Assembly: GCA_964187785.1 (NCBI GenBank)
Contig: OZ076414.1
Span: 34,038,001 to 34,102,000 of the forward strand
DNA length: 64,000 bases
DNA from: Amphiscolops sp. MND2022
Taxonomy: Eukaryota
Direction: 5' to 3'
Position numbers and translations under genes: made by a program
Notes under the pieces: model-generated
Seen by the model: only the letters and a program-made list of their open reading frames with translations
What the model was told of the DNA's origin: nothing
Database searches by the model: none
In this document: in pieces, positions 24,305 through 57,635 of the stretch
How positions within the stretch are numbered: the stretch's first letter is position 1
How the letters are laid out: every line of letters begins with the position of its first letter

Positions 24305-24306
24305 AA

Positions 24307-25230: not shown

Positions 25231-25322
25231 AATACAATACGTGGATAAAATATCATCCTCAGCTGAAGAAGACGACTGGGATCACAACAAAATACAAAGT
25301 ATCAACAACAAGAAGAAGAAAA

Positions 25323-32526: not shown

Positions 32527-32533
32527 CCCCCAC

Positions 32534-36005: not shown

Positions 36006-36905
36006 TCAGCTTTTTTTCATACATGCCTTTTCAAAATGGCCTTTCATTTTGCAATAATTACATTCGGCCTTATCCTTATGGAAACAATCTGCTTTTACGT
36101 GTCCTTTAATGCCACAGCAGTAGCATGTCTGTCCTGTGTTCAACTTAGGCGCAGCGTTATATTTACCCAATGACTTGGGTTTTCGCCTGTGTCTCTTGCT
36201 TGCCCTTGCCACATGTGAATCATCGTCGTCTAGTTTCTCCCTGTGTTGACGGCTTTCCTCGTAATTGGTTAGACGTGTCCTCAGCTCCACAAAGCTGCCA
36301 GCTGGATTGAAACTCTCTTGGACAACGAAGTGCTCGTAGCGCTCAGGTAAACCATTGAGCACCATCGCATTGAGCAGTGGCTCTGAAAGATGTTCCCCTG
36401 CTTGCTCCAGGCGAGTTGAGAGCTCTTGGGCTCTGATGAAGTAGTTGTGGAGTGCCTCGTCTTCTCTTAGTGCCAAGCGAGCCAGTTGCCTCATCACACT
36501 CACAACAGTGACTGTTTCATTGCTTCTGAACCTCTCTTGCAGAAGCCCCCATGTCTTGTGACCGTCACCGAGGCCTTTGTGATCAACGCAGTCATGCCGG
36601 ATCAACATCAGACTTGTAGAATCGAGAACCATCGCAAGGTAGCACCAGAGTGTGTTCTTGCGTTTCTCGATGTCGTCGAGAGCACGTCGATGTGCTGCTT
36701 CAGCTGCGTCGTGAGCAGCGCGGGCTTCGTCCGTTGGGTCATTACCAAGCCGCGTTGGTGGAGTTGGGGGTCGCTCATTGCCAGTGAGCGTGTCGAAGAG
36801 GCCTTTCCTTTGAGAAAAGGCTAGAAATCTGGTGCTCCAGATTGGGTAGTCCTCCGTTAGGCCCGAGAAGCAGAGCCATTTGAGATTATTGCTATTGCTT
36901 TCCAT
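36006..36905 (-). CDS. gag: Copia gag with two CCHC zinc knuckles
   Basis: Likely start MESNSNNLKW. Copia gag helical domain (LGDGHKTW..L.ERF, LNGLPERYEHF) and knuckles CYCCGIKGHVKADC and CNYCKMKGHFEKAC. Frameshift into the protease at an A-run. Confidence 0.9.
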   Translation of the reverse strand: MESNSNNLKWLCFSGLTEDYPIWSTRFLAFSQRKGLFDTLTGNERPPTPPTRLGNDPTDEARAAHDAAEAAHRRALDDIEKRKNTLWCYLAMVLDSTSLMLIRHDCVDHKGLGDGHKTWGLLQERFRSNETVTVVSVMRQLARLALREDEALHNYFIRAQELSTRLEQAGEHLSEPLLNAMVLNGLPERYEHFVVQESFNPAGSFVELRTRLTNYEESRQHREKLDDDDSHVARASKRHRRKPKSLGKYNAAPKLNTGQTCYCCGIKGHVKADCFHKDKAECNYCKMKGHFEKACMKKS

Positions 36906-37107
36906 TTCAAGTTTTTTCGAACCTACTAAGCTCAGCCGATAGTTTATTTTTTCTATCGTTGAGTAGTGCAATGCTAACCTCCCAGTCACAACCTGTCTAA
37001 ACCGGAACCGGGTTAGCTACTCAACGGCTGAGACCCTACTAAGCCTTTTGAATTAGGACGTGGGATCTACTCCCCCTAGATTGATTGGACAGCTTAATTG
37101 CCTTTCG

Positions 37108-37121
37108 CTGGGCCCATAACC
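37108..37121 (-). promoter_or_regulatory. Copia-type PBS (internal initiator tRNA-Met half-molecule type)
   Basis: GGTTATGGGCCCAG, the motif known from Drosophila copia. Confidence 0.85.
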
Positions 37122-37686
37122 TATAAGGCTAGGACGTGGCTGAGCAGTGAAGACTTTCGTTTAGAAAGACAATTAGAAAAAGCAGTTAATGTGAAGATTA
37201 GTTTGGAAGGCTATTTCAGTTGATGAGCGCTGTGAAAAATTGTGGAAAGCACCGGGTATTTATACTCCAAAAAGTAAACATGACATTTATTAAAGGTTGG
37301 GGACTTTGGAAGAATGCGGATGTGAATTTCCTTGATTTTTACAATCGAACATTCTGGAAGGAATTTTCCATCACACCATCATAAAAAAATGTAATACTTC
37401 AATGCAATAATCATGAACTTCAGAATCGCTTCATAATCCAATTTTGAGGTCATAGATGGGACTCAGATGTTTGATATTTACGATACTTTCGACAGGTTGA
37501 ACTTGAAAGGTTAAACATCAACAAATAATTCGAGTAAGCTAGCAACATCATTTAATTCATTGCTCGAACAACTTGAAGTTTGCTAACATATCAGGTTAGT
37601 TTGTTTCTTCTCCATTTTGAGCTATTATAAAATAAAAGTATAAGTTTTGTAGCTCCAGAAATTTGACTAAGTTCTTTTCCTCAACA
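37122..37686 (-). repeat. 5' LTR of copia element (TG...TA termini)
   Basis: On the minus strand it begins TGTTGAGG and ends ...CCTTATA, followed directly by the PBS. Confidence 0.93.
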
Positions 37687-38409: not shown

Positions 38410-40483
38410 TGTAAAGGTTCGATTGGGTTTAGGAGAAATTAGCCTTCTGAGATTCTTGATCAATAGTGTTTAGGAGTTAGTTTGCGACTATGCCTTCCTA
38501 AACCTTTACAAAAGTTGTCTCTAGGTCTTCCGAGTTCGCAGGAAGGACTTTGTTTCGAGAGAAGAGTTTGAATATATGAAAAGAATTTGAATTAGTTCGA
38601 GTATTATATTCAACAATGTTTGTTTTTACACAATACGCAAGAATACAATACAAACAGAATAATGTAATCATCCAAGTTGACACAAATATCCAATCAATAA
38701 TATCTGAATTGCTTAGCATTCACCACAAATAAATACATCAATTATTTAGGGAGCAATGTTCAGGTAAGTTGTTTAAATACTATAAAAACTGGAATTTTCT
38801 GATCTTATTGTCCAACAATTTGGTTAGGACAAGTGTGCTGACTTTTGGCCAGAATTCCAGTCTATTCAGACCGGTTTGGGGTTCCTAGAGTTCTCAACAA
38901 TGTAGTGAGAGTTACTAAGTCTATTGACAATTTACGTGAAAGGTTTGTCACACGTTCTAGCTTATAGGAAGCGAAGAACTAGCTTATAGGAAGCTGAGAG
39001 TTAAATAAAATAGTTTTAGCCTATATGACCAGCCAATTACTAGGTCGAAGACAGGGTTGTCTTGAGCATAGACTTATAAGAAGTCTTGCGAATCTAAGTA
39101 AATTAAAGGTCTTATCTAACCAGCATTCGCTAGGTTTTTGTTCGGACAAGATTGCCGATTGGGCTCGATCCAGAGGTTCGGTGCCGTGTTCTAAGAGTTT
39201 TAACCTATTGCAATGGACCAGCAAGTTTGCTAGGTCGAGAGGAAGACAAGTTTGTCTAAAGACTTTGAAGAAGTCTTGTGAGTCTAAGTGAGTTAAAAGG
39301 CCTTATTTCAACCAGCAGTTTGCTAGGTTGCTTTTTAGACAAGATTGTCAGAATTCTGTTCAATACTTTATAAGGTTACATGCATTTTACTTTTTAATCA
39401 GTTTGTTTTACTTGCAAGTTAGCTGCAGTTATTGAGATGATCTAGACTAGCAGTCGCTAAGTCTTGACGCAATCGCGTACTAAGAGGAAAGTGATCTCCG
39501 TCGAGAATTGTTTGGGAGCGTTTAGCTCTAGTTAGTTTTCCCTATGATTTTCATAGGAGAACCTTGTCGGTTGTTTGTCTCTTCAGTCACTAGGACTGGG
39601 GGTTGTCTATAAAAGACAGGTAGGAAAAGGGAGCAAAGAAAAAAGAGAAAAATTTTGAGTTGTGAATTTTGAAGTTATTTTCTAAGTTAAAGAAAATAAC
39701 TAACCTGAAGTTTGAAGCAAAGATTGGGTCGGAGAGATTTGTTCTCGCAAGAGAGAGATTTTTTGAGTGAGATGATTTATAGCAGAGGCGAAGAGGAGAG
39801 TCAGAGTGAGAGTGTGCGAGGGATTTATGCGAGAAAATTATATCTCAATTTGCTAGAGTCCGGCTTTTTATACGAGCCGACCGAACGGTACAACCAATCA
39901 AATCGATTGGCGTTTTTTATTGGATACGAAATTATTTCGTCATTATCTCGTCAATATTTTGTCCATAATTGGAATCGCATTCACTATTGGATGCAACCGA
40001 ATAGAAGTCGGCGGGGATTGCATCAGCTACCGAATATGTTCGGCTAACCGAGTTGGCTGACGCAACTCTTTGTATTTGTCAGGGGAATTAATCCTCTCAA
40101 GTGGGGGACTTTGTTCCCACTTGAGAATTCTTTTGTTTAAAATTGAGAATTTGGCCGTACAAGTGGCGCCTATTATTCTCTTTTCAGAGATATTTACTGG
40201 CACAAGTGGCGTCGCATATTGTCTTTTCAGGGGAGATAAAAGATAATTGTTTGCACAAGTGGCAAGCGTTTTCTTTCGTAGAGGGGAATTCTCCCTTTCA
40301 TATGACGCGCAGCTGTAATTTTGTTTATCTCTAAAATTCTTTCGAGCGTGCCTGGAGAATTGAAAGAATTTGAGTAAGAGTTCACAAAAATTGAATAAAA
40401 AAAATTCTAGCTCCGATTGAATAATTTTCTAAATATGTTTTTTCAAATATTAAAATGAAGAAAAAGTTGTGTTAAACATAACA
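38410..40483 (-). repeat. 3' LTR of giant element (2,074 bp)
   Basis: Direct repeat of 55562-57635, with internal duplications (16-bp ctagcttataggaagc x2; an ~190-bp-period degenerate pair). Confidence 0.96.
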
Positions 40484-40485
40484 AC

Positions 40486-41259
40486 TCACCCGGGGTTTAA
40501 GAATGATTGAGTTGAAAGGGGGGCATTCAGGGTATTTATGACTTTTACTTCGAAAAATATGGAATTGTTTTTTAGCCAGGGGTTCTCTGGGTTCATGAGT
40601 TCATCATGTGGGATGAAGCACAAGATGGTGATTGCTGTGTTGCTGGCTGTGGGAATAGGTTTCTTGAAGCACTCACTGTTATTGTTATTCGTCACAATGA
40701 GTTGTTTGTAGGGTTTGTAAATATTGCCTTGACCAAGGAGGTGTATCTCGATAACGCCTTGGAAGGGCCAAGTGAGTATCTCATCGTAGGGTCCCGGACA
40801 CATAGCCAAGCATACTGACATGTATTTCCCTTTGGCAGTGTCGATGCCATAAGGGTAAGCTCGTAGATGAAAGGTGTACCCAAAGGGTTGTGAGAAGAAG
40901 ATAGGGCTACAGACGTCTTTTAGGCTATTAGGATCACAATAGGGTGCTCTTACATGAGACAAACTTTTTTCGTATTTTTCAGCATTCTGAAAAATATCAG
41001 AAAATTGATCAAGCCTCCAAATAATTTTGTAGAGGTTCCAATCCCGTGGAATTGATTTCTTTTCGATACGAAGGACTCGCATCTCAAGTGCGTCGAGCTT
41101 TTTACTGATCTCGTGTATCATATCAGAATCAAATGTGTCATCTTTATATTGGGTGATATTGAGTTTTTGTCGAAGCAATAGTAACTCATTGATTAGGGAG
41201 TCCGTAAGGGACCTTTCATCTTCCAATTGTTCAATAAGGGTAGATGAGCTTGTGTTCAT
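40486..41259 (-). CDS. TRAF-like protein (coiled coil + TRAF-C/MATH domain, no RING or zinc fingers), 257 aa
   Basis: IIWRLDQF...SPIFFSQPFGYTFHLRAYPYG...GKYMSVCLAMCPGPYDEILTWPFQGVIEIHLLGQ...FKKP...FIPHDEL...LKNNSIFFEVKV follows the TRAF-C consensus strand by strand. Heptad-rich residues ~8-68. Confidence 0.92.
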   Translation of the reverse strand: MNTSSSTLIEQLEDERSLTDSLINELLLLRQKLNITQYKDDTFDSDMIHEISKKLDALEMRVLRIEKKSIPRDWNLYKIIWRLDQFSDIFQNAEKYEKSLSHVRAPYCDPNSLKDVCSPIFFSQPFGYTFHLRAYPYGIDTAKGKYMSVCLAMCPGPYDEILTWPFQGVIEIHLLGQGNIYKPYKQLIVTNNNNSECFKKPIPTASNTAITILCFIPHDELMNPENPWLKNNSIFFEVKVINTLNAPLSTQSFLNPG

Positions 41260-41295
41260 CTTGATAGGTCGTTCTGAAATTCAATGGAAAAGACT

Positions 41296-41805
41296 TTAAA
41301 TAAATGCTGAAATAGCTCTAATAGGTACCACAATCCTCTGGTAGCCTAGGGTCGGATTTTCCAATGTAAATTCTTGACGGTTAGAATCCCAGAATACAAT
41401 ATTCCAAGGATTATATTCGCGTTTCAAAAGATAATTTAATTCGGTCCGGAATCGTGGGTTCCTGGTGAAAATATATTTATTAGCAGCTTCCTCGTTTTTT
41501 CGTTGTTGTCGTAGTTTCTCGTGAGCCGAGAGGGAAGCTTTTTGCCTTTTATGAGAACGCTTAATGGACGTTGAATGAGGTCGTTTAGTGGGTAGGGGTG
41601 TTGTTTTTAAGTTGTTGCGCGGAGGAGGTGGTGCTGTTTCAGTAACACCTTCTGCAATAGTTTCCGTTGAGAGAAACTCTAAATCTGTTGGGGAAAGCAA
41701 GGGGAGATCAAGTAGTCCGCTGTTGTCGAGTTTTGGTTCACCTGTTAATAACTCGATTTCTTCAGCCACAGTTTTGTCGGTTTGCATATTCTGAATACTA
41801 AACAT
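41296..41805 (-). CDS. Accessory ORF-D, ~163-169 aa: acidic N-terminus, Pro-rich linker, basic NLS-like stretch, small C-terminal domain
   Basis: Long ORF on the element's coding strand between env and TRAF. The acceptor tttagtattcAG (41791) lies just before ATG 41787 (MQTDK). Confidence 0.75.
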   Translation of the reverse strand: MFSIQNMQTDKTVAEEIELLTGEPKLDNSGLLDLPLLSPTDLEFLSTETIAEGVTETAPPPPRNNLKTTPLPTKRPHSTSIKRSHKRQKASLSAHEKLRQQRKNEEAANKYIFTRNPRFRTELNYLLKREYNPWNIVFWDSNRQEFTLENPTLGYQRIVVPIRAISAFI

Positions 41806-41815
41806 AAAAATACAA

Positions 41816-43924
41816 TTACACCGGAGAAACAGTATGGGTATTCGAAGTAGGGGGCCTACTTATGGCAGGGTAAATGTGTTCGAGGGTTTCGTGCTCATTG
41901 TAATTTTTGTCTGGAGGGGTATCTGAGACCATTGGGTCATGTTGGGGAACTTGATTAAGTGTTGATATCATCGAAACTGTGAATAGATTGTAGGTTGCTG
42001 ATAGAAGTATTTTGCCAATACCCCAAGAAGCTCCTGTAACTCGGTGTAGTTCAAATGAGCGAAATGTTATAACAATCACATTGACCAAAAACTTGATAAG
42101 AAGAAATCCACCAAACCACTGTCCCAATTTGCTAAACCAGTATTCGATAATACCAAAAGTGCTGATGAACTGTTCCTTGAAATATCCTGGTGATATCATG
42201 TTATCCACATAGAAATTTGTACGTGGTGCAAAGTAACCAAATTCGTCTGGTCCTTTGTCGGCAGCTGAAGGTATAATGAGTTCTCGTGAAAACTTTTGCA
42301 AGGCATTCCTCGAAGCCGCGCTGATCAGAATATTGTCCCAAAAATCGCTGAGTTGTCCTTTTGTGTACATTCCAGCATCTTGAGACTCATCGAAAGCATC
42401 TTTTGTGAAAGGAGAAATCTCTTTCGGACCGAAGATAGCAGGTCTATCTCTATGTGTAGGCTCTGGATTTAAAGAAAACCAAGAGTCCTTGTCTTGCATA
42501 TCTAGTTGAAAAAGGTTCTTTATTCTATCTGTGCAATTTTGGGTATTTGCGTTAGGGTAGGTTTGTCTGGTGATGGGGTCTACGAATTGAATTTGTCCCT
42601 TGTAGAATATGGGTATTTTGTCATAACAATTGTTCATGACATGAAGAGGTGATGAAATCAGTGGGCATGAATAGAGCCAGGCGAGACTACCATCAGTTTC
42701 AAGGAACATGGATCTATTTCCAGTAAGCATGTATCCAGCAAGGCGTGGATTTTCCAAAGACAGCATTAAAATAGTTAGAATTTGGGTTCGTTCCTGTTCG
42801 CACTGGTTTTTCAACATTTGAATTTCGGAAGATTGCAGTGCTCGGGTGCTTTCGAAGAACAGGTAATCCAGTTTTGTTCAAACTTGCATTTCATAATCCA
42901 TGTTGAGCCAAGTATTAACGTACTTGTCTTTAACTGTGGCATCTCTGTTGTACACGTAAAGTCCAGGTTTCCCAGAATTGTCTGTGGAGTATTGGAGGGT
43001 ATAAGATCCTCTTGTTATCCCCATCTTTCTTCCGGAGGCCATGTCAAATCCACCGGTATGTATCACAATGTACATGGACTCGTAATTTGTGGGATATACG
43101 TCGTTTGGTTTGTTGCAGAATTTTTGAGGGTAGTTCTTCACTTCGAACAAAAATTTGGAGGAGGAATCGTTGGTGCTCACCATGTGATACCTGTGTTCAT
43201 TTTTTATCATATTCACATGTTCTTCTTTCAATACTGAAAGTACACAGTTATCTGGGTGATCCCAAATATAGGCGTAGGGATCCAAGGATGTGCTTTGGCA
43301 ACCCAGATCGTCAAGTTTGCATGGGAGAGGATTTCCATTTACATTGTGAACTGTTCCATCTCTCAGCTTGACGGGTAGGGTAACATCTTGAATGTGACTC
43401 TCAAAAGTATCTTTGATCATCCAAGACCTTCCAGTGCAATGGTTTCTGTTTTCTTCGCTCTTCTTTCCGTTCGTATAGGACTGAGTTAGTTTGTTTCCCT
43501 TTTTAAACTGGACCATGTGATCCAATATTTGTATCTTTCCCTCTTCTCGTGCTCTTCGACATTGTTCGGGGCTCAAATCGATATCGCTAGTTATTGTACT
43601 TTGTTCTGCATCGATACTCGCATGGTCATGATATCCACAATGCCATTTGAATCTACTGTGCTTTAGGCGGCACATAGTGGCATTGAGTTCTGTACGAAAG
43701 TGCTTCGTGTAGACAGTGATTATGGCTGGGTTGATTTCAATATTTTCTGGGGAAACGTGGCAGGGTCTCACTTGATTGAGCGCATATAATTTGTTTTCGG
43801 TCATTTCTCCACAATCATAGTGCGATACACTAAGCCTTTGTGCGATGTCATCCAGGTTTGGATTGGGGAGGCTATTGATTAGGGAGTAGCACGTAATGAA
43901 TAATATCAAAATTTTACTGCACAT
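41816..43924 (-). CDS. env: Envelope glycoprotein, chuvirus G / herpes gB-type class III fusion protein-like; 702 codons with one in-frame TGA (42878-42880)
   Basis: N-terminal signal peptide. Cys pattern YDC..., CRLKHSRFKWHCGYHDH, SPEQCRR, LPCKLDDLGC, KNQCEQER...ENPRLAGYML, CYDKIPI...DPITRQT...QNC. N-glycosylation sequons and C-terminal hydrophobic segments. The two listed ORFs are in the same frame. Confidence 0.85.
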
Positions 43925-44037
43925 TTTGGAACTAACTGGGGGAAATCTTAGGTGTTTGCCAGAGCTCAGTTTTCAGAGGGGCAAACTGTTAAGAAGAAAA
44001 AATCAAAAAGAGGAAAGTTAAACGGTAGCTTGCTAAC

Positions 44038-44189
44038 CGAGAGTTGGTGGAGTCGAATTTGACAACCAGTTAGAATCAAATTGATTCTATTGTTGAAGAA
44101 TGTTCTTCAGAAACGAGAGTTGGTGGAGTCGAATTTGACAACCAATTAGAATCAAATTGATTCTTTTGTTGAAGAATGTTCTTCAGGAA
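44038..44189. repeat. Two 76-bp direct repeats, each with two palindromes, upstream of env
   Basis: Units at 44038 and 44114; each has agaatcaa-a-ttgattct and gaagaa-tg-ttcttc. Confidence 0.9.
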
Positions 44190-44503
44190 CTGAAACGAGA
44201 CAATTATTGTCTAACGTTTTCAACCAGGGTGAACACCGAATTTGGATTTGATAGCTTGCTAACCAAAAATAGGTGTAGTCACAGTGATCACTGCTTTAGA
44301 TTTGAGATTGGTGCACAGGTCTATGGATTGAAGATTTCAGTGTCTGGCTCAATTGATAGCCGTTTTCATAAGTACTGAAAGTACACTCTGTTATCAGAAG
44401 TGAAGTTATGGAATTTGGGATTTGAAGTGAAAGTTGAGAAAGAGGATCGTAAAATTTTATTTACCAAACAAAAATTTATTTCAAAACGAAAATGAGATGA
44501 AAT

Positions 44504-44968
44504 TTACAAATCATAAAACTGGATAAGATCCTTGTACAATTTGCTATATTTAGGTGAAGTGACACACTCAATGTCCATGACACTGGTTAATTCACCTAAC
44601 ACAAGCAGATCAAATTTGGTGATGTGCCTTTCAGGTCTCTGTTCGTATGACAGGAGGGAAGCTGCTAGTGACGCGTATAGAAGGGTGTCCTTGTAGATTT
44701 GTTTCTGATACTTTTTGTCAGGCAGGTCGTAACGTTCAAAGTGAACGCAAATCTTGAATTCGTAGGTCCAAGTCCACCGAATATAGGTGATCAAAAATTG
44801 TTTGTTGTTTTCAGCAACGAAAATAGTCCAGGGGCAATTGAAACTGAGTTCTTCGTACTTTTTCTCCCAGAGGGTATCCAAGTAAATAGTAGGAGGAGGA
44901 TAAATTTGAGTAATCCTCGGTTTTGTTCTTTTGCGTGAGTCTTTTTTGAGAATAGACTGTGGGTTCAT
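44504..44968 (-). CDS. Accessory ORF-B, 154 aa from MNPQSILKK (paralog of ORF-A)
   Basis: Starts in the TAATG overlap. Followed by two AATAAA (44480-44475, 44461-44456). Motifs align with ORF-A. Confidence 0.8.
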   Translation of the reverse strand: MNPQSILKKDSRKRTKPRITQIYPPPTIYLDTLWEKKYEELSFNCPWTIFVAENNKQFLITYIRWTWTYEFKICVHFERYDLPDKKYQKQIYKDTLLYASLAASLLSYEQRPERHITKFDLLVLGELTSVMDIECVTSPKYSKLYKDLIQFYDL

Positions 44969-45186
44969 TAGAGATGGTTGTTTTCTCCTCTGAACAAATC
45001 CGAAGGTTTGTCTCCCACAAATTTCATAAGGTGGAGAAAATAGTCCCAATATACTGAATGTTGATCTACAAAAACAATATCTTTTTTCGAGGTGATGTAG
45101 TGCTTTACATAGATATAGATTCTGTCTTGATGCAGCTCAGTTCTATAGATCCGGTAGAATTCGTTTTCAATTTTGATGTAGGTCAT
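44968..45186 (-). CDS. Accessory ORF-C, 72 aa (MTYIKIENEF...), unknown function
   Basis: ATG 8 nt after the acceptor ttttgactatttcAG (45195). Its TAA overlaps the ATG of ORF-B (TAATG). Confidence 0.65.
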   Translation of the reverse strand: MTYIKIENEFYRIYRTELHQDRIYIYVKHYITSKKDIVFVDQHSVYWDYFLHLMKFVGDKPSDLFRGENNHL

Positions 45187-45214
45187 ACGACGAACTGAAA
45201 TAGTCAAAAGTTTT

Positions 45215-45642
45215 TTACCCACGGCAGAGATTGATACTATGATCGTTACCGTGCTGAAAAGTTATTTACCCACGGCAGAGATTGATACTTTGATCGTTAC
45301 CGTGCTCGTTTTTGTGAAAAATTCTTTACCCACGGCAGAGATTGATGCTATGATCGTTACCGTGCTGAAAAGTTATTTACCCACGGCAGAGATTGATGCT
45401 ATGATCGTTACCGTGCTGAAAAGTTATTTACCCACGGCAGAGATTGATGCTATGATCGTTACCGTGCTGAAAAGTTATTTACCCACGGCAGAGATTGATA
45501 CTTTGATCGTTACCGTGCTCAATTTTGTGAAAAAGTTATTTACCCACGGCAGAGATTGATACTATGATCGTTACCGTGCTCAATTTTGTGAAAAAGTTAT
45601 TTACCCACGGCAGAGATTGATACTATGATCGTTACCGTGCTC
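45215..45642. repeat. Tandem array of 8 units (51, 60 or 61 bp), each containing an imperfect inverted repeat
   Basis: Units start at 45215, 45266, 45326, 45377, 45428, 45479, 45540 and 45601; core cacggcagagattgatactatgatcgttaccgtg. Confidence 0.95.
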
Positions 45643-45748
45643 AAGAATTTCTGAAACGAAGGACTACAAATTAGTTATCAGTTTACGTTAAAATGACAAT
45701 GAAGAGAAGAGAAAAAGAATTTTGACAAGAAGACTTTTATTTACAATA

Positions 45749-46159
45749 TTAGAAATCTTCCATTTCCTGCCACAGCTTTAGAGTTTCAAGGAAATCAATG
45801 TACATATCATTGTAGCTCGAGTTTTTACAAACATTGTCCATCTGGCTAGAGATGGTGTTGAGAGCGTCGACTTCTTGTTTTGATAGCTGTGGTTCGGGTT
45901 TCCTCATGAACGTTACTAACGCCGCAGTGAGGGACACATAAAGGAATGAACCGGGTTTGACCCATTTGTGGTATTTTTGTTTGGACCGGTAGTTATGGAA
46001 TTTAACTTCTACATCAGCAGTTGGGTGCCAACTCCAACTTAGTTCTTCGATGATCATCGAGATTTCTTCTAATTCGGGCATGATATTCCAGGGGCAGCAT
46101 TTGAAATTTATTTTGTTCATAATCACAATAGGGATGTCGTACGCAATGACGGGCTTCAT
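45749..46159 (-). CDS. Accessory ORF-A, 136 aa, unknown function (paralog of ORF-B)
   Basis: ATG preceded by a tttcAG acceptor (46176), AATAAA 7 nt after the stop, and clear collinear similarity to ORF-B. Confidence 0.8.
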   Translation of the reverse strand: MKPVIAYDIPIVIMNKINFKCCPWNIMPELEEISMIIEELSWSWHPTADVEVKFHNYRSKQKYHKWVKPGSFLYVSLTAALVTFMRKPEPQLSKQEVDALNTISSQMDNVCKNSSYNDMYIDFLETLKLWQEMEDF

Positions 46160-48549
46160 CTTTGGTTGGCTTGGGCTGAAATTTGGTCAAAATAGATACT
46201 AAGGCACGAAAATGCTGCTTGACTTACTTTGTAAAATTTAAACAAATTTTACAATTGCAAGAGCTGGATTTTTCAAAAAGTAAAATTTCATACTATTGTT
46301 TTTGTTCTTTTCACAAGGTTCTCCTTTAACAAGGCTTTGTCTTGTTTTCTTTTGTTTGTCTACTTCTTTTGTTTCCTTTTGTAGTCTTTATTGAATAGAT
46401 TCTTGCATTCTTTTGTTTTCTACATGCTTTTGTTGTTACATGCAGTGGTTCCTTTTGTAAACTCCTTTCAGTTGTTGACTTTTGTTTTTCGTTTTCTATG
46501 GTTTGCATCACTGGCTTTCATCGGCTTGTTTTGTAAAGATCGCGCTTTTGTTGTTGGATAACGGCGGGTGCCATATGTGTTTTTGAAGTAGAGTGTTGAA
46601 GTTAGCTTTGTATTGAATGCGCTTTTGTTATGGTTCAGTTCTTTTGGTGCCATGTGTTTTCGAGTGGTTTGAAAAGTTGTTTGTTCACAATGTGCTTTTG
46701 TAATGGTTCAATTCTATGGACGCCATGTGTGTTTTTGAAGTGGTGGCCCAAATTCGGTTTGTGTTGAATGCGCTTTTGGATGTTAGTCTGATCTCTTCAC
46801 ATTTACAAGTAAGTTCGGTTTTCATTTTCAACTTTTGCTTTTTCTTGAATTTTTGGTAACGTGTATATGACACGCTCGACCGCCGAAAAAGAAGTAGAGA
46901 AAAAGGTTTGAGCCATATGGTGGTGAAGATTGGAGAGAAAGAAATGAAAGAAAAGCAATTTTGAAGAACGGAGTGGAAAATGGGGGAAATTTTTAAACGG
47001 CATAAGGGGGGTGGTGAAAACGAAATTTGAGGTTGTAATTTAGTTGCGTTTCTTTAGGCTGTTTTAGTACACGATGAACCGTTTGCCATTTTCTACCGCG
47101 GATGATGCTTATCTGGCACCAGATCTTTTTGCGGATATGCGATTATTGGTGACTGATTTGGAACTACCAATGATGGCGGGGACGACAGCGGTGGGCGAGG
47201 TGTTGCGACGCCCAGAACCACTCCGGAGAGCAGTGAGATTGGCGTTAGGCGAGCACGTAAGTTGTTGAGTGGTGTAACTTGTGAAGCTAAGACATTGTGG
47301 AGAAGAGATTTTGAATTAGTTCTTAGCACTAAGAGTAAAAAGGAAATGGAAAGTATTGTCTTTAGCTTCGATTGTAAAAGTTCTGTAGTTGCAGTTTCTA
47401 AGTACGATAAGGTAAACAGAGACGGAAATGTTTGTGAAATTAATGTTTTTGTGTATTGATTGCAGTTTGTTTTAGTGGAGATCGAAGCTACAGTCCGGAG
47501 CCAAGGACGTTTGGATTTTTAAACTAAAAGCCATTGTACGGGGGTGGGAGATGACTGCTCCACAAGATCGGCCGGACATAGCCCGACGGCTGGATCGGAG
47601 TCAGTTTTTTCAAGTGCTGCAGGACTTGGCGGAGTTGGGGGGATATATGGTGTGCCTCTGCGCGGGGCATCCTAAGCCGCCTCCAAATGGGGCGACTGTT
47701 GTCCCTTCCGAAAGGGAAGATTTATTATAAACTTGTATATATTGTAAATATTTTGTTTTTGTTATTTTAATATTTTAATTTTATTTTGTAATACTTTTGT
47801 TTTAAATTTGAGTTTTTAAGTTGTAGGGTGAAAAGTAAGAGAACGGTTTTTGACGGTTATAAATTCGAAAAGTTTAGCTGGAGGAGAAGGATTAGCTAAA
47901 ACTTTGAGCAATCGCCTCTGTGGGGGCTTGTTGATTAAAACATCAACAGTCACAGTGCTATCTATTCCAGGCAATTCGACCATTTAAGGCGAACCGCCAT
48001 AGCACAATTTTTCTTTGTGGTTTTTGTCTCTTGAGAAGACTTGTTGAAGAAAACCGTCAACAATCACAGTGGCATCTATTCCAAGCAGTTCAACCATTTA
48101 AGGTGAACCGCCGTACCACAAAATTTTTGTTGTCAGAGTGGGTAGTGATCCGATTTAGAATTTTCGCAAAAAATCTCGGGATTCAGTAAGGTGTACTAAA
48201 AGGGTATACCAGTGAAGTGTAGGTTATTGCTAATTGTCTCGTAATAGTTTTGTGGTTGTTGTATCCAATGGGTCATTGTGGAGCAACTTTGTTTGTAACT
48301 ACGTAAGAAAAAAAATTGAAGTTTTTTGAAAGGGAAACTCTTTTTGTTGTGTCTCAAGACGAAAAATGTTTAGGAGTGTGTTCGGAGGCTTCCTGGTGAG
48401 TCTCATTACACGGTGAAGTGTGTTTAGTTCCGTACTATACAAGTTTCAAGTTGTGACGATGAGGAAGTAGTTCGCGCTTATGTACGGAACTGAGAATTGA
48501 GAGGTGTAGAAAAATGTGACATCTTGTTATTGTTATTTTTATTTTGATT

Positions 48550-51500
48550 TTAATCTTTATAACCTTTCCGTTCTATATCCCTGAGAGAACTACCAGGGGT
48601 GCTTCGTTCGTATTTGGGGTCTTTGGGTTTTTCGGAAAACCGTGTAGATACTTTCTTTTTGAAGTTTGATAACTTTCCTGTTTTTGGGGAAATTTGGTCG
48701 GGGGGAGGCACTGTGTGGATAGGAGGGACGGATGGGAGAACCGGCGTTCTCTTTGGTAGGGGAGTGTTAGAAGAGAAAGCGAGCGGCAAAACTGCCATTG
48801 GGAGGCGTGGTGTTTGCATAGGTGGGAGTGGGTTTGTTTTACAACTTTGAGGGGTACGTTCCCCTGGAGCGGTGTTGCTAGAAGTAGATGGGATCGGGGT
48901 GTGAAATTGTGGTGTTTTCGGGGAAAGGAATCCAGAATCAGTACTGGGGGAAAATTCTGAACCTTTAGAAGTATTGTTACTCGGTCCTGAAAGGGGGGTT
49001 ATGATAAGTGGCATAAAATCTAGTTTATGCTCAGGTTGTCCCGAGTTGTGTTTGTCAATTTGAGTTTGGATCAAATGCTTGTAAAAATTATCGTCCTGTT
49101 CTACGGGAGCGTAATTTGTCAGCAATGGGGGTAAAGTTTCCTCTTTGGGAAAATACTCTAGTAAGTGGTTTCGGTGAGTTACTTTAACATTTTCGGGGTT
49201 CTCATCTTCTTTAATCTCGTATGTGGTATTGGTTATTTGTTTTGTTACCGTGAAAGGTCCCACTCGTAATTGTTTCAATTTCTGTGATTTGGATAGGTCG
49301 GGTTTGTGATTCTCCAATAGGACTTTTTGACCAACCGCGAGCGGTCGTCCTAGTTTGAAACGGTTCCGATACTCATGAGCTTTCGATGTGATTTCTCTAC
49401 ATCTTTTGTAGGTAGATGAGTATATTGATTTGAAATCGTTTTCTCTTGTAAGTAGTTCGGAAGATAACTGTGGTCTAAGGAGTCGGTCGAGGGACTTGTT
49501 TCTGAGGTTATTCTCACTATGGGTGTGGGGTTGTAAATCTGCACAAAATTCTGATTTACATTGTTTGTTTTTGTCGCGAAATAGCCCAAGTTTCAAAGTC
49601 ATCGGTATCTGAGGTTTGACGCCGAAGACAATCTCGTAGGGGGTCATACCCGTTGTGTAATTTACACTTGTGTTATGGGCAAAAGCGAATTTAGATGCAA
49701 GTGTTGACCAGTTGTTTCCTGACTCATTGGTGAAATTCCTCCAGTATCTCATGAGGTGTTTGTTTTGGACTTCAACTTTGCCATTTGTCCAGGGCGAATA
49801 AGCAGTGCGCGGTGCCAGCGTTATTCCGAACTCTTTGGTCCAATTTACAAAATCACGGTTGATAAACGCTGAGCCATTGTCGTGGACGATTTTTTGGGGA
49901 ATGCCGTAGGATGTGATCCATTTTTCTAGGGCATTGATTGTAGTCTGGGCTCCTGTATCTCGGACCGGATAGACTCCAAGAAATCTTGAGAATGCATCTA
50001 CTACAACTAGACAATGTGTATTCAGGTTACTGCTTGGTCTGATGGGACCTTTGTGGTCGATATGGATTGTTTTGAAGGGGGTTGTCTCGAGTTCGCCCCA
50101 TTGTTCAAGAGGAGCTTCTTGTAGATCGTGTCGTTTAGACTTGTTAGTCTGGCATTGTAGACAATCTTCTATCAGGGATACTATCCACTTATATCGTCCA
50201 GGCCAAAAGAAGTTTTGTCTGATGTTTTCGAATGTTTTAAATATGCCTGGGTGGCCACTGTGAGTATGAGCGTGGGCCAGATTAAAGAGGGGTAGGAATA
50301 ATGATAAGGGGACACAGATTTTCATTTCGTATTTGTCCGTTCCATGAATAGGTTCGTTATAGCAGAGTAGGTTGCTTTCTTTATCGAGAAAAAGTTGGTT
50401 GAAATTGTTGAAGTACGATAGCAAAGCCTTCGATTGGTGGATCTCTGGTGTTTTGGTGTTCGGCTTGTTCTTGTTTCTAACCCAAGCTCGTACAATTTGT
50501 AATACAGGATCGTTGATTTGTTCTGCAACTAAGGTGGTGATGTCCAAATCAGCGGTTTTAGAGTAATCGCTGAGTTTTTGTAAGAGGTCTTTGGTATCAA
50601 CGTGTGGGAATTGCTCGACATCTAAATTCTTGTTCAATAGAGGCCTTTCACTTTTCTGTGAAATGTTCTTTTCTTTCGCAGTTGATTTATCGCGATAGAA
50701 CTCGTGGTCTTCGCTGGAAAGGTGAAGTTCGGCGACTTCCTCTTCATCGTCACTGGAATCGGTTTCGATGTCGTCAATTCTACTATACTCGGGTTCATAC
50801 TGTATTTTGTATGAGGGTAGACAGAGGTTTTTGTATTGATTGATGGATTTTCCCAGTTTGAAACAGTCAGCGATGTCTTGGCGAGTCGCCATTACTGTTT
50901 GTTGGTTCTCATAGTGTTCTACTTCATGTTCTTCTCCGTCATTCTTGAGATGGAGTAGCCTTTGATCTTTGCCTTTTTGGCAGAGGATAGGGAAAAAGTC
51001 ATTGCTGCCACAATGACCATCGTCATTATGCTCGATTGCATAGTGTATTTTCGATCCAAATTCATCATAGAAACTGATATCTCGCGGTATCTCTTTGTGT
51101 AGTTTTTGTAAGTTTTTGGTTTCTTCCAGCGTGACATTTCTACTAAGTATGTCTGGAAATGCGAGGTTGGATCCTTTAGTCCAGATGATTTTGAGGTTTT
51201 GGAACTTGGTGATGATTACCTGATACTTGAAAAAGCGATGTGAAAGCTGTCCTTTTCTTCCCCAGAGGTATAAAATAGGTTTGTGATCGCAATAGAGGTA
51301 TATTGGAAATGGAGATCCAATAATGTAGTGTTCGTATGTTTGGAGTGCTGATACTATGCCACACAATTCGCGATGAAGGGTGGACATCTTTTGTTCAGCT
51401 TTGTCAAATACGCGGGAATTGAAAGAAACTATCCTTTTTCCTTCTGGAAATTGTTGAACTAGTATACAACCAGTACCAACGTTCGAAGAATCGACGTGTA

Positions 51501-52570
51501 TGTGGAAGGGGTACTCAGTTGAAGGGACAGCAAGAATAGTGTCCTCACATATACGACTTTTTATATCAGTGAAGAGGTCTTCGTGTTCTTTCGTCCATTT
51601 GAAAGGCGTTGTAGCTTTTATCAAATCGTAGAAGGGCTGGCTATCCACGTGTAAGTTTTTGATATAGCAACTGTAAAATCCAAGACAGCAAAGTACTTTC
51701 ATCACATCTCTTTTACTTTCGGGTGATTTTAAGTTTTTTAGATCCTGTACTCTTTTTGCTAAGGGTTGTATTCCTTGTTCAGAAATAACATGTCCTAGGA
51801 ATTTGACTTTCCTGATGAAGAAATTCGTCTTCTCAGGTGCAGCTTTAAGTCCGGCTTTCCTCAGGAGCTGATGGTACTCATGAATTATCGTGAACATTTC
51901 TTGTTTGGTCTGAGCCTGCATAAGACTGTCATCAAGATAGGTGATAGCTTGTTTTCGCTTGATGAGGGGCTCAAAATGTATAGCCATGAGACGGCTAAAA
52001 AAGTTTGGAAGTCCACAGAGTCCGTAGAAACCGCGTACATACGTGTATTGTTTTCCGCCGATAATAAAACTAGTGAGTTTTTGGGTCTCGTCGCTCAAAG
52101 GTACTTGGTGATATGCGCAGGATAAATCGCTGACCGTGAAGTACTTTCCGTTAATTCGAGTCATAATCATCTGAATGGGTTCCAATGGCCACGAGTAATT
52201 TGTCAGATCTGTTATGGAGTTTAAGTAGCGGGCGTCGATTACTAACTTTACGTAGTCTGCTTTGGGCATCAGAATGATCGGATTGACAAAAAGGGAACCT
52301 AGTTCGTCATCGTCTCCCATTTCTCTAATGATATCGGCTTCTTGGATTCGTCCAAGTAACTTCTCAAGTTTGTCCTTCAAGTGAAGGGGTACTTTGCTTG
52401 GTCGTTGTTTCTTGAGTTCTGAATTGGCTTTGAGTGTTACGTGAAATTTTTGACGTACTTTTCCCACGTCAAATTTGTGTTGTGAGTACACGTCCGCTGA
52501 GTCAATAAGCATGTCTATCAAGACAACCAATTCTTCATCTTCGAGGTCAGTATATCGGAAATCGAATTTC
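48550..52570 (-). CDS. pol: Pol part 2: RT, RNase H, linker insert, integrase (HHCC, DDE, GPF), Pro/Ser/Thr-rich tail
   Basis: YLDD at 51939-51928. RNase H: VDSS, ELCG, CDH, PD. IN: HAHTHSGH...CLQC, IDHKGP, HDNG, GKVE, VGPF. Joined to part 1 by a -1 shift near 52570. Confidence 0.95.
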
Positions 52571-54137
52571 TTTCATATTCCTTGATTTCCTCAGGCTGAT
52601 ATTGGAGATAGTAATCAATTAGTGCGTCATTGTCTTCTTTTGCTCTAAGCTCGACAAATTGTTCTGTACAGGGTGGCTGACACGATTTAGCATCCGTAGC
52701 AAAATTTGTTTCAAGTTCTTCAGTACCATTAGCAAATTGTTCTGTATAATAGTCAATATCTCCTTCTTCTACTTCTTCTTTTCGTATGGAAGCGTTAACA
52801 AATTGGAGGTTCGGTTCGTTTCGTGATACGATCTCGACTTTAATATGTCCATAATCGAAGCTGTTACGGATTATGTCCAAAGCTCCTTTCCAGTGAATGT
52901 TATCTAAGCCATCTTCAATTTTGGGTATTGAAATTGCAGGTATATTGTTTAGTTGTGCGTGTCCAACCAAATTTTCGATGCAACTGCGAAAATCTTCGGG
53001 TTTAATTTTTTCGTAACATCTCTTTTTTGCAACTAGTCCATAGATGAAGCGACTGGCTTCGTTATCCCAAAAGGGTAAAACTGATCCGACGAAAGGTTTC
53101 GACTGGTTCACGAAATTCTGAAAATCTTTCTTCTGTTCGCACAACCTTTTTGCGAACGTGGTTGTCATTTTTCCATCTGCTGAGACACAAAAGGCTAGAT
53201 TTGCATTTGAGGCTCGAAGGGTCTCGCCGGAGCCGTGGCTTAGAAAAACTTGTTGATCTCCTTCGTGTTCGAAGGGAACTGTTGAGTGTAGCAAGAAACA
53301 GTCGTTGTAGTCTGGGTTTTCCTTTAAAATTGTGTTGACCATCGTGACGCAATCCTTTATCTGGAACTTTGGTCGTTCTTTTTCCTGTAGGTCTATGATA
53401 GCATGACCAATTATTCCTCTATTAAGGGTTATTTGGTGATTTCGATTATTTTCAATCAAAATTGGCAGGTGGGATTCGGACTTCGTACATAAAACATTCA
53501 CAAAGGTAAGTCCTGTTTTGACTGCATTTTTGTGGGGTGTGAATGATGTTCCGGGTGCAAAATGTCTGTTATTTTCGCGGGAGTACTTGTGTAGGCGGGT
53601 AGTTTTGGCATCGATGCAAATTGGGTTATCTGTTCGTATTGTTTCGACCTTTGAAACGTATGGGAAAGGTTTGGTAGCACAAAGGTTACCGTAGCAAATC
53701 GTGTTAGGACTGTCTTTCAATTCGATTGCAGGCAAATCAAAATGTAATTTAGAAACAAGTTGACGGCAGAAATCTATTCCCAGTAAATTGGGTGTCTTCG
53801 CTTCTGTTATCCAAAACTTTAGCTCTACAGGATGGAGTCCATCCGAGTCGAAACTGAATGTGATTGTTGTTGATCCAAACATCGGTATAACTTCACCAGT
53901 ATAGGTTTTAGTCAGTTGTTTGCTCCTGACTACCGTGATGGGTTGTCCAAACTGTGCAATTTCCTCAAAAGCTCTGTAATTGATGATTGAACAGGCTGCT
54001 CCTGTATCTAGCATGAATTCTATTTCTAACCCACTATCTTTTTTGGAGTCTCCGGTGGGAAAAAAGAAGAGATTTAGGTGAAAACGTGATTTGAGGTTAC
54101 TTTCTTCGTCAGGTCGCGGAGACTTTAGCAGTTTAAA
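52518..54137 (-). CDS. pol: Pol part 1: aspartic protease, dUTPase-like remnant and TARG1/Poa1p-like macrodomain
   Basis: MLDTGA...LLGIDF protease. Macro region 52827-53249 (AFCVSADGKM...FIYGLVAKKR...ISIPKIEDGLDNIHW). Confidence 0.88.
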   Translation of the reverse strand, partial: FKLLKSPRPDEESNLKSRFHLNLFFFPTGDSKKDSGLEIEFMLDTGAACSIINYRAFEEIAQFGQPITVVRSKQLTKTYTGEVIPMFGSTTITFSFDSDGLHPVELKFWITEAKTPNLLGIDFCRQLVSKLHFDLPAIELKDSPNTICYGNLCATKPFPYVSKVETIRTDNPICIDAKTTRLHKYSRENNRHFAPGTSFTPHKNAVKTGLTFVNVLCTKSESHLPILIENNRNHQITLNRGIIGHAIIDLQEKERPKFQIKDCVTMVNTILKENPDYNDCFLLHSTVPFEHEGDQQVFLSHGSGETLRASNANLAFCVSADGKMTTTFAKRLCEQKKDFQNFVNQSKPFVGSVLPFWDNEASRFIYGLVAKKRCYEKIKPEDFRSCIENLVGHAQLNNIPAISIPKIEDGLDNIHWKGALDIIRNSFDYGHIKVEIVSRNEPNLQFVNASIRKEEVEEGDIDYYTEQFANGTEELETNFATDAKSCQPPCTEQFVELRAKEDNDALIDYYLQYQPEEIKEYERNSISDILTSKMKNWLS

Positions 54138-55519
54138 GGATTGAACGAGATTGTACTAACTCTGTCCTGTCCTTCTTCGTCAATGAACTGTACGGAGTTT
54201 GGGAAACTGTCATTGTTGGTTGGGAAATTTCGGTTGTACTCAGAATTTGTGTTTTGTGGTCGTGCACTGAAGTTATACGGGCTATTTGGCCTATTTCCAG
54301 TATAGGGTGTATTGTTTCGCAAATTGGTGCTAGTAGAAGTTGGTCTACTACCTGAAGAGTGATTGTTATTGCCATTGAAGTTGTTGAAGTTGTTCGACTG
54401 CTGAGAATTATTTCGGTTCCAGTTTTCATTTCGATTGTTTCCTTCGTTAGGTCTGCCTCTGTTGAAGTTTTGGTTCGACTGTTGGTTGCTTCTTTGATTA
54501 TTGGTGAAGTTCGGTCTTGGTGAAGACTGATAATTTTGTTGTGACCCAAATCCGGGTCCCTTCCGTTTGTTGTAGTCGTTGGTGAAGGTGACCTTCTTCT
54601 CTTCATTAGCTCGTGATTGTGCTCTCTTGGCTTCGTCATCGTAGATCTTCTTTCGGCAATATTGGAGTGTATGACCATTCCTTTGGCAATATTTACAAAA
54701 TCGTGTGATGTTTTGGCGGGACGTGTTATTTACGTCTACTGCAGAGACGTGATAGTCATGACAGTGAGAGGATGGGCATCCGTAGGGTAGAGAGTTAGTC
54801 ACAGCTAAAGAATTGACTTGTTGTTCTTTTAGCATATTCTTCATTGCGTTGATGTCTTCTCGTAGTTCGTTTATCAACGTTTTCTGGTTTTGTGAGGAGT
54901 TCGGAGCTAGCTGAGAGCTGATAGTAAAAACAAGGTCTTTATTAGTTACATGTTCCTGAAATTGTTCCCAAGTAGCGTTGGGGTGTTCAATTAGGTATTG
55001 GTGAGCCTTGTTCTTTAGTTCGTTTGGCGTTAGTCCTCTGACTGCAAATTCAATGTACTTTTGCCTTCTTTGGGCATTCAGGGCAGCCCTGGCTGCGTTA
55101 TCAGCATTTTCTTCATCTGGCCATCCTCTATCGACAGCTCGTTTCACTCGGTGAAAGTAGTTCTTTATTATTTCTTCATTTCCTCTGACACTGTTTTCTG
55201 CAGTTATTCTATATCTGTATTTATCTCTGTTGTCGGAAAAGCGGGTTAGAAAATGTGCTCGAATATATTGCCAGTCGTGTCCATCGTCTATGTTGTCTGC
55301 ATACCATTCAGCGGCAGGTCCTCTTAGGAGTGATGAAAAAAGTGCCTTTTTGCGAAAAAGGTATCTTGCGCGTTCGTCGGCATTGTCGGGTTCATGACCC
55401 ATCGAGAAATTGATTTTGTTTTCAACGGTTGTTAGGAATGATCTAACATCTTGTTCAGGATCGTTCCCTGAAAATTTGTCCGAAGCGAGGTCGGGAAATG
55501 AAACTGTGTTATCTGCCAT
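54125..55519 (-). CDS. gag: Gag, 464 aa, intact
   Basis: Ty3-type capsid (KFSG...LLRGPAAEWY...FLTRF), CCHC knuckle CKYCQRNGHTLQYC, and an N/Q/R-rich nucleocapsid tail. Confidence 0.93.
   Translation of the reverse strand: MADNTVSFPDLASDKFSGNDPEQDVRSFLTTVENKINFSMGHEPDNADERARYLFRKKALFSSLLRGPAAEWYADNIDDGHDWQYIRAHFLTRFSDNRDKYRYRITAENSVRGNEEIIKNYFHRVKRAVDRGWPDEENADNAARAALNAQRRQKYIEFAVRGLTPNELKNKAHQYLIEHPNATWEQFQEHVTNKDLVFTISSQLAPNSSQNQKTLINELREDINAMKNMLKEQQVNSLAVTNSLPYGCPSSHCHDYHVSAVDVNNTSRQNITRFCKYCQRNGHTLQYCRKKIYDDEAKRAQSRANEEKKVTFTNDYNKRKGPGFGSQQNYQSSPRPNFTNNQRSNQQSNQNFNRGRPNEGNNRNENWNRNNSQQSNNFNNFNGNNNHSSGSRPTSTSTNLRNNTPYTGNRPNSPYNFSARPQNTNSEYNRNFPTNNDSFPNSVQFIDEEGQDRVSTISFNPLNC
54131..54137 (-). 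promoter_or_regulatory. -1 ribosomal frameshift slippery heptamer U UUA AAC
   Basis: In gag frame CCT TTA AAC TGC TAA. The -1 frame is open without stops into LEIEFMLDTG (protease). An 8-bp stem agtctccg/cggagact begins 6 nt downstream. Confidence 0.85.
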
Positions 55520-55540
55520 TCTTCTCTTTTGCTTGAATGT

Positions 55541-55558
55541 GCCTCACTGGTCGCACCA
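55541..55558 (-). promoter_or_regulatory. Primer binding site of giant element
   Basis: TGGTGCGACCAGTGAGGC, 3 nt after the LTR. The implied tRNA 3' end GCCUCAC-UGGUCGC-A-CCA has a T-arm like elongator tRNA-Met or tRNA-Ile(UAU); this assignment is inference. Confidence 0.8.
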
Positions 55559-55561
55559 GTT

Positions 55562-57635
55562 TGTAAAGGTTCGATTGGGTTTAGGAGAAATTAGCCTTCT
55601 GAGATTCTTGATCAATAGTGTTTAGGAGTTAGTTTGCGACTATGCCTTCCTAAACCTTTACAAAAGTTGTCTCTAGGTCTTCCGAGTTCGCAGGAAGAAC
55701 TTTGTTTCGAGAGAAGAGTTTGAATATATGAAAAGAATTTGAATTAGTTCGAGTATTATATTCAACAATGTTTGTTTTTACACAATACGCAAGAATACAA
55801 TACAAACAGAATAATGTAATCATCCAAGTTGACACAAATATCCAATCAATAATATCTGAATTGTTTAGCATTCACCACAAATAAATACATCAATTATTTA
55901 GGGAGCAATGTTCAGGTAAGTTGTTTAAATACTATAAAAACTGGAATTTTCTGATCTTATTGTCCAACAATTTGGTTAGGACAAGTGTGCTGACTTTTGG
56001 CCAGAATTCCAGTCTATTCAGACCGGTTTGGGGTTCCTAGAGTTCTCAACAATGTAGTGAGAGTTACTAAGTCTATTGACAATTTACGTGACAGGTTTGT
56101 CACACGTTCTAGCTTATAGGAAGCGAAGAACTAGCTTATAGGAAGCTGAGAGTTAAATAAAATAGTTTTAGCCTATATGACCAGCCAATTACTAGGTCGA
56201 AGACAGGGTTGTCTTGAGCATAGACTTATAAGAAGTCTTGCGAATCTAAGTAAATTAAAGGTCTTATCTAACCAGCATTCGCTAGGTTTTTGTTCGGACA
56301 AGATTGCCGATTGGGCTCGATCCAGAGGTTCGGTGCCGTGTTCTAAGAGTTTTAACCTATTGCAATGGACCAGCAAGTTTGCTAGGTCGAGAGGAAGACA
56401 AGTTTGTCTAAAGACTTTGAAGAAGTCTTGTGAGTCTAAGTGAGTTAAAAGGCCTTATTTCAACCAGCAGTTTGCTAGGTTGCTTTTTAGACAAGATTGT
56501 CAGAATTCTGTTCAATACTTTATAAGGTTACATGCATTTTACTTTTTAATCAGTTTGTTTTACTTGCAAGTTAGCTGCAGTTATTGAGATGATCTAGACT
56601 AGCAGTCGCTAAGTCTTGACGCAATCGCGTACTAAGAGGAAAGTGATCTCCGTCGAGAATTGTTTGGGAGCGTTTAGCTCTAGTTAGTTTTCCCTATGAT
56701 TTTCATAGGAGAACCTTGTCGGTTGTTTGTCTCTTCAGTCACTAGGACTGGGGGTTGTCTATAAAAGACAGGTAGGAAAAGGGAGCAAAGAAAAAAGAGA
56801 AAAATTTTGAGTTGTGAATTTTGAAGTTATTTTCTAAGTTAAAGAAAATAACTAACCTGAAGTTTGAAGCAAAGATTGGGTCGGAGAGATTTGTTCTCGC
56901 AAGAGAGAGATTTTTTGAGTGAGATGATTTATAGCAGAGGCGAAGAGGAGAGTCAGAGTGAGAGTGTGCGAGGGATTTATGCGAGAAAATTATATCTCAA
57001 TTTGCTAGAGTCCGGCTTTTTATACGAGCCGACCGAACGGTACAACCAATCAAATCGATTGGCGTTTTTTATTGGATACGAAATTATTTCGTCATTATCT
57101 CGTCAATATTTTGTCCATAATTGGAATCGCATTCACTATTGGATGCAACCGAATAGAAGTCGGCGGGGATTGCATCAGCTACCGAATATGTTCGGCTAAC
57201 CGAGTTGGCTGACGCAACTCTTTGTATTTGTCAGGGGAATTAATCCTCTCAAGTGGGGGACTTTGTTCCCACTTGAGAATTCTTTTGTTTAAAATTGAGA
57301 ATTTGGCCGTACAAGTGGCGCCTATTATTCTCTTTTCAGAGATATTTACTGGCACAAGTGGCGTCGCATATTGTCTTTTCAGGGGAGATAAAAGATAATT
57401 GTTTGCACAAGTGGCAAGCGTTTTCTTTTGTAGAGGGGAATTCTCCCTTTCATATGACGCGCAGCTGTAATTTTGTTTATCTCTAAAATTCTTTCGAGCG
57501 TGCCTGGAGAATTGAAAGAATTTGAGTAAGAGTTCACAAAAATTGAATAAAAAAAATTCTAGCTCCGATTGAATAATTTTCTAAATATGTTTTTTCAAAT
57601 ATTAAAATGAAGAAAAAGTTGTGTTAAACATAACA
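55562..57635 (-). repeat. 5' LTR of giant element (2,074 bp)
   Basis: Direct repeat of 38410-40483. The minus strand has several CCAAT boxes upstream of TATAAAAA (57024-57017). Confidence 0.96.
57017..57024 (-). promoter_or_regulatory. TATA box of the LTR promoter
   Basis: TATAAAAA preceded on the same strand by multiple CCAAT motifs; same site at 39865-39872 in the other LTR. Confidence 0.6.

Follow-up and report, generated by a model that had tools for sequence, protein, structure and literature searches.

A predicted TARG1-class macrodomain with a remodelled ADP-ribose pocket in the Pol polyprotein of an env-carrying Ty3/gypsy element

Identity of the domain and of the element that carries it

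Counter-defence by macrodomains is established in RNA viruses, including alphaviruses and coronaviruses, and macro domains are carried by some non-LTR elements, as well as by an endogenous retrovirus of Xenopus. The locus analyzed here raised the question of whether the Pol polyprotein of an LTR retroelement carries a domain of this kind, and whether such a domain could still act as an ADP-ribose eraser. The original prediction placed a TARG1/Poa1p-like macrodomain at 52827..53249 (minus strand) of the window, i.e., the whole 64-kb stretch of Amphiscolops sp. DNA under analysis, and the three motifs quoted for it were found there, at residues 303-443 of the 545-aa frame 52521-54155 on the minus strand. 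Profile searches gave a divided answer. The Pfam Macro model scored 18 bits on the domain, below its cut-off of 22, and a Pfam scan of the entire 545-aa frame missed it; on the other hand, phmmer against the PDB retrieved human TARG1/C6orf130 in five of the six rows (E 3e-11), the sixth being noise (E 0.79). The nearest ESM Atlas clusters had Pfam Macro in 25-55% of their members. The NCBIfam DarG model NF048014 did not match the window domain, and the related family B reached 31.7 of 250 bits with it.

Next, the domain was modelled with AlphaFold2. The macro fold was predicted with a pLDDT of 91.7 when a 54-row alignment was supplied, against 34 from the single sequence, and this model, being ligand-free, tells of the fold and not of the pocket. 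The best eight Foldseek rows were all TARG1 (TM 0.82-0.84), and VIA-align superposed 138 residues on the human enzyme with a Z of 21.4 and an rmsd of 1.7 A. The DarG antitoxin (PDB 5M3E; Z 18.5-18.9) and yeast Poa1p (6LFR; Z 17.0), which belong to the same ALC1-like class, matched less well than TARG1. Alphavirus and coronavirus macrodomains also place a macro fold within a viral polyprotein, but they belong to a more distant class (Z about 13.9); closer viral matches were TARG1-like domains from CRESS viruses and from RNA viruses of invertebrates. By these models, the stretch 52827-53249 encodes a genuine TARG1-class macrodomain that is nearer to TARG1 than to DarG or Poa1p; the predicted fold stood, and so did the class, with TARG1 preferred to Poa1p or viral Mac1. 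A chance motif match or an assembly artefact, to which the sub-threshold Pfam score and the single-sequence pLDDT could be credited, is ruled out by the TARG1 match, the Z of 21, the copies elsewhere in the genome that share 97% identity or more (at least 33), and the presence of the same protein in an independent protein collection (P0005).

The domain is held by an env-carrying Ty3/gypsy element of about 19 kb, on the minus strand at 38410-57635. The LTRs (5', 55562..57635; 3', delimited by LTR comparison, 38410..40483) are 2074 nt long each and have TG...CA ends; the target duplication is 4 nt, TAAC, and since the LTRs differ at just 4 positions, the insertion is recent. A primer-binding-site-like stretch (55540..55559) begins with TGG two bases past the 5' LTR, and ARAGORN detected no tRNA in the 64-kb window. 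The gag gene (54125..55519; Retrotrans_gag, E 4e-4) overlaps pol at 54125..54155, where a slippery-type heptamer was seen in six of six examined copies from families A (the window's own), B, and E; a programmed -1 frameshift is likely at this overlap, and the macrodomain would be made through it together with Gag-Pol. Given the polyprotein layout, it would then enter the particle alongside reverse transcriptase (RT) and integrase. In pol order, domain matches identified the aspartic protease (53769..54032), RT (51778..52392), RNase H (51202..51597), and integrase with its zinc finger, core, and SH3-like end (49162..50310). The RT-RNase H-integrase order assigns the element to Ty3/gypsy, and with the LTRs, the target duplication, and the preceding protease it has the full set of features of a Ty3/gypsy LTR retrotransposon. 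The macrodomain follows a conserved protease-RT spacer (53250..53750), which matched nothing in Pfam and is also found in relatives without the macrodomain. Its location within Pol was as predicted; its continuity with RT was not, as the frame of the window copy is interrupted between the macrodomain and RT at about 52518..52600. The Pol of close copies was a single frame of 1835-1870 aa in 22 of 33 cases (97% identity or more; 150 of 919 candidates were scored, and these copies number at least 33).

Downstream of pol, two small related accessory frames (44504-45136 and 45749-46186; span 44504..46186, minus strand) flank a tandem array of 51-61-nt units and had no Pfam match. The env-like gene (41816..43972) matched Monjiviricetes_fusion, PF24664 (E 4e-23 and 1e-13), and is interrupted by one stop near 42878 in the window copy, with single frames of 713-731 aa in sister copies. 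A 187-aa frame downstream of env (41296..41859), again with no Pfam match, is common to families B and E, and a MATH/TRAF-domain frame (40486..41280; E 8e-22) is common to families A, B, and E; the latter lies 3' of env and is possibly a signalling decoy. An env-like fusion gene within the LTRs, shared by families A, B, and E, gives the element an errantivirus-like character. Errantiviruses with HSV/gB-type, chuvirus-like env are alike in their gag-pol-env Ty3/gypsy layout and PF24664 fusion protein (PMC13524379), and a term search of the main text and supplements of that survey returned no mention of macrodomains or ADP-ribosylation, the matches in the supplements being species names.

Other elements were observed in the same window. 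A broken second gypsy element (24087-30043, plus strand) has 206-nt LTRs and gave no macrodomain match, and a copia element (31962-37686, minus strand) has 565-nt LTRs that are 99% alike and a coding region split over several frames. A pair of related repeats (6881-7286 and 8933-9317) is built of internal units of 32 nt; separate from these is an RT fragment at 16021-17124.

The ADP-ribose pocket across families

As described in the accessible part of PMC6397177, Lys84 of TARG1 is the nucleophile, Asp125 the resolving residue, and the GxG loop serves the pyrophosphate, with His32, Ser35, and Thr83 surrounding the distal ribose; the published TARG1 pattern is TKx(30,35)Px[IL]GxGxD. The window domain keeps Lys84 (53025-53027), Gly123 (52908-52910), and Asp125 (52902-52904, all on the minus strand), along with Ser35 and Asp37, and it carries five substitutions, i.e., His32 to Phe, Gly43 to Thr, Thr83 to Ala, Gly121 to Glu, and Cys122 to Asp. 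It therefore resembles human TARG1/OARD1/C6orf130 (PDB 4J5Q, 4J5R, 4J5S, and 2L8R) in the fold, the Lys84/Asp125 pair, Ser35, Gly123, and Trp129, and differs from it in being part of a retroelement polyprotein, in failing the TARG1 pattern, and in the five changed positions. Retention of the catalytic pair and the change in the first loop had both been foreseen, but the changes at His32, Thr83, and the first glycine of GxG had gone unnoticed. For Asp20, which binds adenine, the phmmer alignment begins after this residue, and it had no clear equivalent in family A, with an unclear register in family B too.

These changes are a property of the family. Across 41 distinct family-A loci, His32, Gly43, Thr83, and the GxG loop were altered in all or nearly all; every one of the 41 had Phe at His32, and acidic residues at both the first Gly and the middle position of GxG, with the second Gly kept. 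Among 152 outside domains, the usual residue was present at His32 in 142, at Gly43 in 146, at Thr83 in 142, at Gly121 in 142, and at Cys122 in 124. The published pattern was found in 15 of 16 family-B loci and 123 of the 152 outside domains, and in none of the family-A (0/41) or family-E (0/9) loci. Similarly, of 20 conserved TARG1-class columns, family B kept 19-20 and family D 17-19, with 11-12 in family A, 10-11 in family E, and 11 in P0289 (family F); only 5 of the 152 outside domains had 12 or fewer. Judged by the published signature, the window's family falls outside the canonical TARG1 hydrolases, and the eraser claim is weakest precisely for this family. The proposal that reversal of ADP-ribosylation guards the cDNA or proteins of the element is hence plausible for families B and D (17-20 of 20 columns) and doubtful for family A (12 of 20 columns in the window domain, and the pattern in 0 of 41 loci).

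We consider it somewhat probable that an eraser was captured once and that, in the window's family, ADP-ribose binding and hydrolysis have been lost, the domain being kept as a folded module that is predicted to be non-catalytic. According to this proposal, a TARG1-class domain would have been captured between protease and RT as an ADP-ribose eraser, and in families B and D, the gag-protease-macro elements, and most families with a C-terminal macrodomain, Lys84 and Asp125 would strip the ADP-ribose added by host PARPs from element RNA, cDNA, or proteins. In the window's family, the two acidic residues of the phosphate loop and the Thr at Gly43 would block the pyrophosphate, and the domain would persist because the folding or processing of Pol relies on it. 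The human mutants G43E, I44E, and G123E fail to bind ADP-ribose, as stated in the accessible text of PMC5928194; the Gly43Thr and Gly121Glu changes of the window domain are other substitutions than these, and family E naturally carries Glu at Gly123. The domain has been retained in family E and P0289 despite the loss of Asp125 and/or Gly123, indicating that catalysis is dispensable for its retention in the clade. Three loci from the families with a C-terminal macrodomain also lacked both catalytic residues. The signature has likely been lost three times within the clade (A, E, and P0289) and once outside it, the count of independent losses being uncertain because a first, unfinished macro tree joined A with E.

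The same pocket can be read as that of an eraser that is still active but retuned, i.e., reshaped for another ADP-ribose linkage, such as base-linked marks on RNA or DNA, with Lys84 and Asp125 working in the particle. We hold this to be possible, though doubtful. The catalytic pair, Ser35, and Gly123 are kept across family A, and the codons of Ser35 and Asp125 show synonymous changes between subfamilies; this fits retained catalysis, but at 12 of 20 columns the retention of Lys84, Asp125, Ser35, Asp37, and Gly123 by chance would not be unlikely. The human enzyme can take base-linked ADP-ribose off RNA, and it is most efficient on these marks according to the accessible part of a preprint (bioRxiv 10.64898/2026.03.31.715305). 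Against a retuned eraser stand the alteration of both phosphate-binding loops, the GxG loop having gained two acidic residues, and the persistence of the domain in E and P0289 just described.

A new binding job, independent of the pocket, was also weighed, in which the surface of the domain would bind element RNA or a host protein as a chaperone or decoy. The human enzyme binds RNA independently of its ADP-ribose pocket (PMC5928194, in the part accessible), and a PxWD stretch specific to the clade does not vary across families A, B, D, and E, regardless of the state of the pocket. The RNA binding of TARG1 is supported, in the accessible part of the same preprint, by the basic residues Lys50, Arg86, and Arg126, of which the window domain keeps only Arg86, and its charge is nearly neutral, with 19 K+R and 18 D+E. 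This explanation is improbable in our judgement, and a non-catalytic folded module is preferred over it.

Capture, evolutionary rate, and selection

The history of the insertion was analyzed with 120 full-length relatives of Pol drawn from the protein collection, and the macrodomain was present in 9 of them. In a quick RT-RNase H tree, the carriers formed one clade of 13 rows (SH-aLRT 95); the domain was visible in 12 of them, and the remaining row begins too late to judge. The sister clade, whose 4 rows show 70-76% identity in RT-RNase H, is without the macrodomain, its protease-RT spacing being 284-298 aa vs 454 aa in carriers, and the alignment revealed a clean insert of about 160 aa within the protease-RT spacer. 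The sister clade lacking the domain and the clean insert point to a single capture, and also to a domain that is unneeded for core retrotransposition. A wider quick macro tree grouped A with B and recovered the clade (support 90 and 84); the joining of A with E in the first, unfinished tree was flagged as long branches meeting. Within the genome, the clade is represented by families A, B, and E, which share their env and MATH genes. Searches of the genome with families D (P0074) and F (P0289) returned family B as the best match, at just 48-49%, indicating that these two come from other assemblies.

When family D was used as the outgroup, the macrodomain had 33 changes unique to A vs 5 unique to B (p 5.6e-6), and in the nine remaining regions of Pol no such acceleration on A was seen (p 0.07 or more). 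The stems of the macro tree measured 1.27 for A vs 0.16 for B, with RT stems of 0.045 and 0.067, respectively. Comparison with 7 diverged A copies (dS 0.45-0.82) gave a dN/dS of 0.054-0.076 for the macrodomain, with an upper 95% bound of 0.14 or less. In these comparisons, the family-A macrodomain thus underwent a domain-specific burst on its stem and purifying selection afterwards. The rate test was not domain-specific for family E, where RNase H and the linker were also accelerated. A burst followed by constraint fits adaptation, and to this extent favors the retuned eraser discussed above. The value of about 0.06 does not single out the domain, though, as similar values came from the linker (0.04) and the tail (0.08), both non-enzymatic, in the same comparison, which indicates general constraint rather than a specific job.

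The rates also bear on whether the domain is a neutral passenger on its way to loss. Between A and B, no other region of Pol is as poorly conserved (41%, against 88-93% for RT, RNase H, and integrase), and close relatives manage without it, as would be expected of a passenger; against this, the dN/dS is about 0.06 at a dS of 0.45-0.82, A, B, D, and E all have a domain of the same length, and the 12 clade rows spanning it showed no deletion. Neutral decay is therefore a very unlikely account of its presence, and the loss of ADP-ribose binding with retention of the fold is again the reading that we favor for family A.

Host PARPs, related retroelements, and precedents

The 1.07 Gb genome has macroH2A-like and tankyrase-like genes and 32 PARP-domain matches. 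Eleven long PARP frames were scanned, and these comprised at least six ZNFX1/UPF1-like helicase-PARP fusions and at least three WWE-PARPs, a set that is a plausible candidate, judged from sequence, for the host side to the element erasers, and one that a retuned eraser would also accommodate. Six of the fusions (L135-L139 and L141; G000 C4, C8, and C13) are single frames of 1800-2100 aa with a helicase and one or two PARP domains, an architecture that looks antiviral, and the H-Y-E triad of PARP domains was recognized by eye, in a similar form, in three helicase-PARPs. Two neighbouring host-like TARG1 frames (L150:5057-6001 and L151:559-1077) had no retroelement domain nearby, and the host-like TARG1 frame (L129/L150) did not group with the element domains in a quick tree whose deep forks are open.

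Retroelements of this genome carry a TARG1-class domain at four polyprotein positions. Besides the protease-RT families, 20 other stretches were examined, 16 with the domain after integrase, 1 with it between RNase H and integrase, 2 with a gag-protease-macro arrangement (834 aa), and 1 fragment. One gag-protease-macro element examined in full had LTRs and gave no match to RT or integrase; L084:1783-4284 is such a non-autonomous LTR element, of 834 aa, with a near-canonical TARG1 site. Dozens of frames similar to it were among the matches listed, and comparison of diverged gag-protease-macro copies gave a dN/dS of 0.15-0.23. Outside this genome, retroelement domains were present in 8 of the 56 long matches scanned, of 150 listed.

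The intact pocket in sister families and its remodelling in family A hint at a tug-of-war with host tagging enzymes. More tentatively, and with perhaps one chance in four on our own estimate of it, an expanded set of host helicase-PARP fusions would mark retroelement RNA or cDNA, and elements would counter with TARG1-type erasers at the four polyprotein positions, even those elements devoid of RT and integrase; the pocket, remodelled repeatedly in a burst followed by stasis, would then give rise to erasers retuned to a changed host mark, or to decoys for it. One clade provides a natural series, i.e., no domain, the full signature, and three remodelled forms. With this series, one could test whether LTR retrotransposons are restricted by ADP-ribosylation, and what role is left to a macrodomain once its pocket is lost.

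Precedents were sought in the literature. Fish epsilon-like endogenous retroviruses carry macro domains, as cited in the accessible part of PMC4977317; they are alike in being LTR retroelements with a captured macro domain, and unlike in belonging to Retroviridae, not Ty3/gypsy, and in having it in additional reading frames and not as a Pol insert. Term searches found macrodomains in retrotransposons unmentioned in the zebrafish survey PMC8672886 and in the accessible parts of the accessory-domain review PMC6338049 and the ADP-ribosylation review PMC10789625. No report of a TARG1-class domain in a Ty3/gypsy Pol was found in the literature searched, which was without most subscription papers and Repbase. 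What is new is that a single clade holds a series of remodelled pockets; macro domains in fish retroviruses were known already.

Several related polyproteins had further features. A sawfly Pol has two macrodomains between RNase H and integrase, and P0249 is a gypsy Pol at whose end a TARG1-like macrodomain precedes a Tpt1/KptA domain, possibly an ADP-ribose eraser and a writer in one polyprotein, judging from its domains. The frame at L071:791-1714, which adjoins a broken macro-carrying element, resembles by eye what we take to be a Polinton-type packaging ATPase. The gypsy elements with a C-terminal macrodomain (L074:4845-5744, L069:4913-6058, L070, L076, L077, and L078) have an antisense frame between pol and env; that of L074 matched JmjC with an E of 7e-4, below the cut-off, and the other antisense frames are interrelated and look similar by eye.
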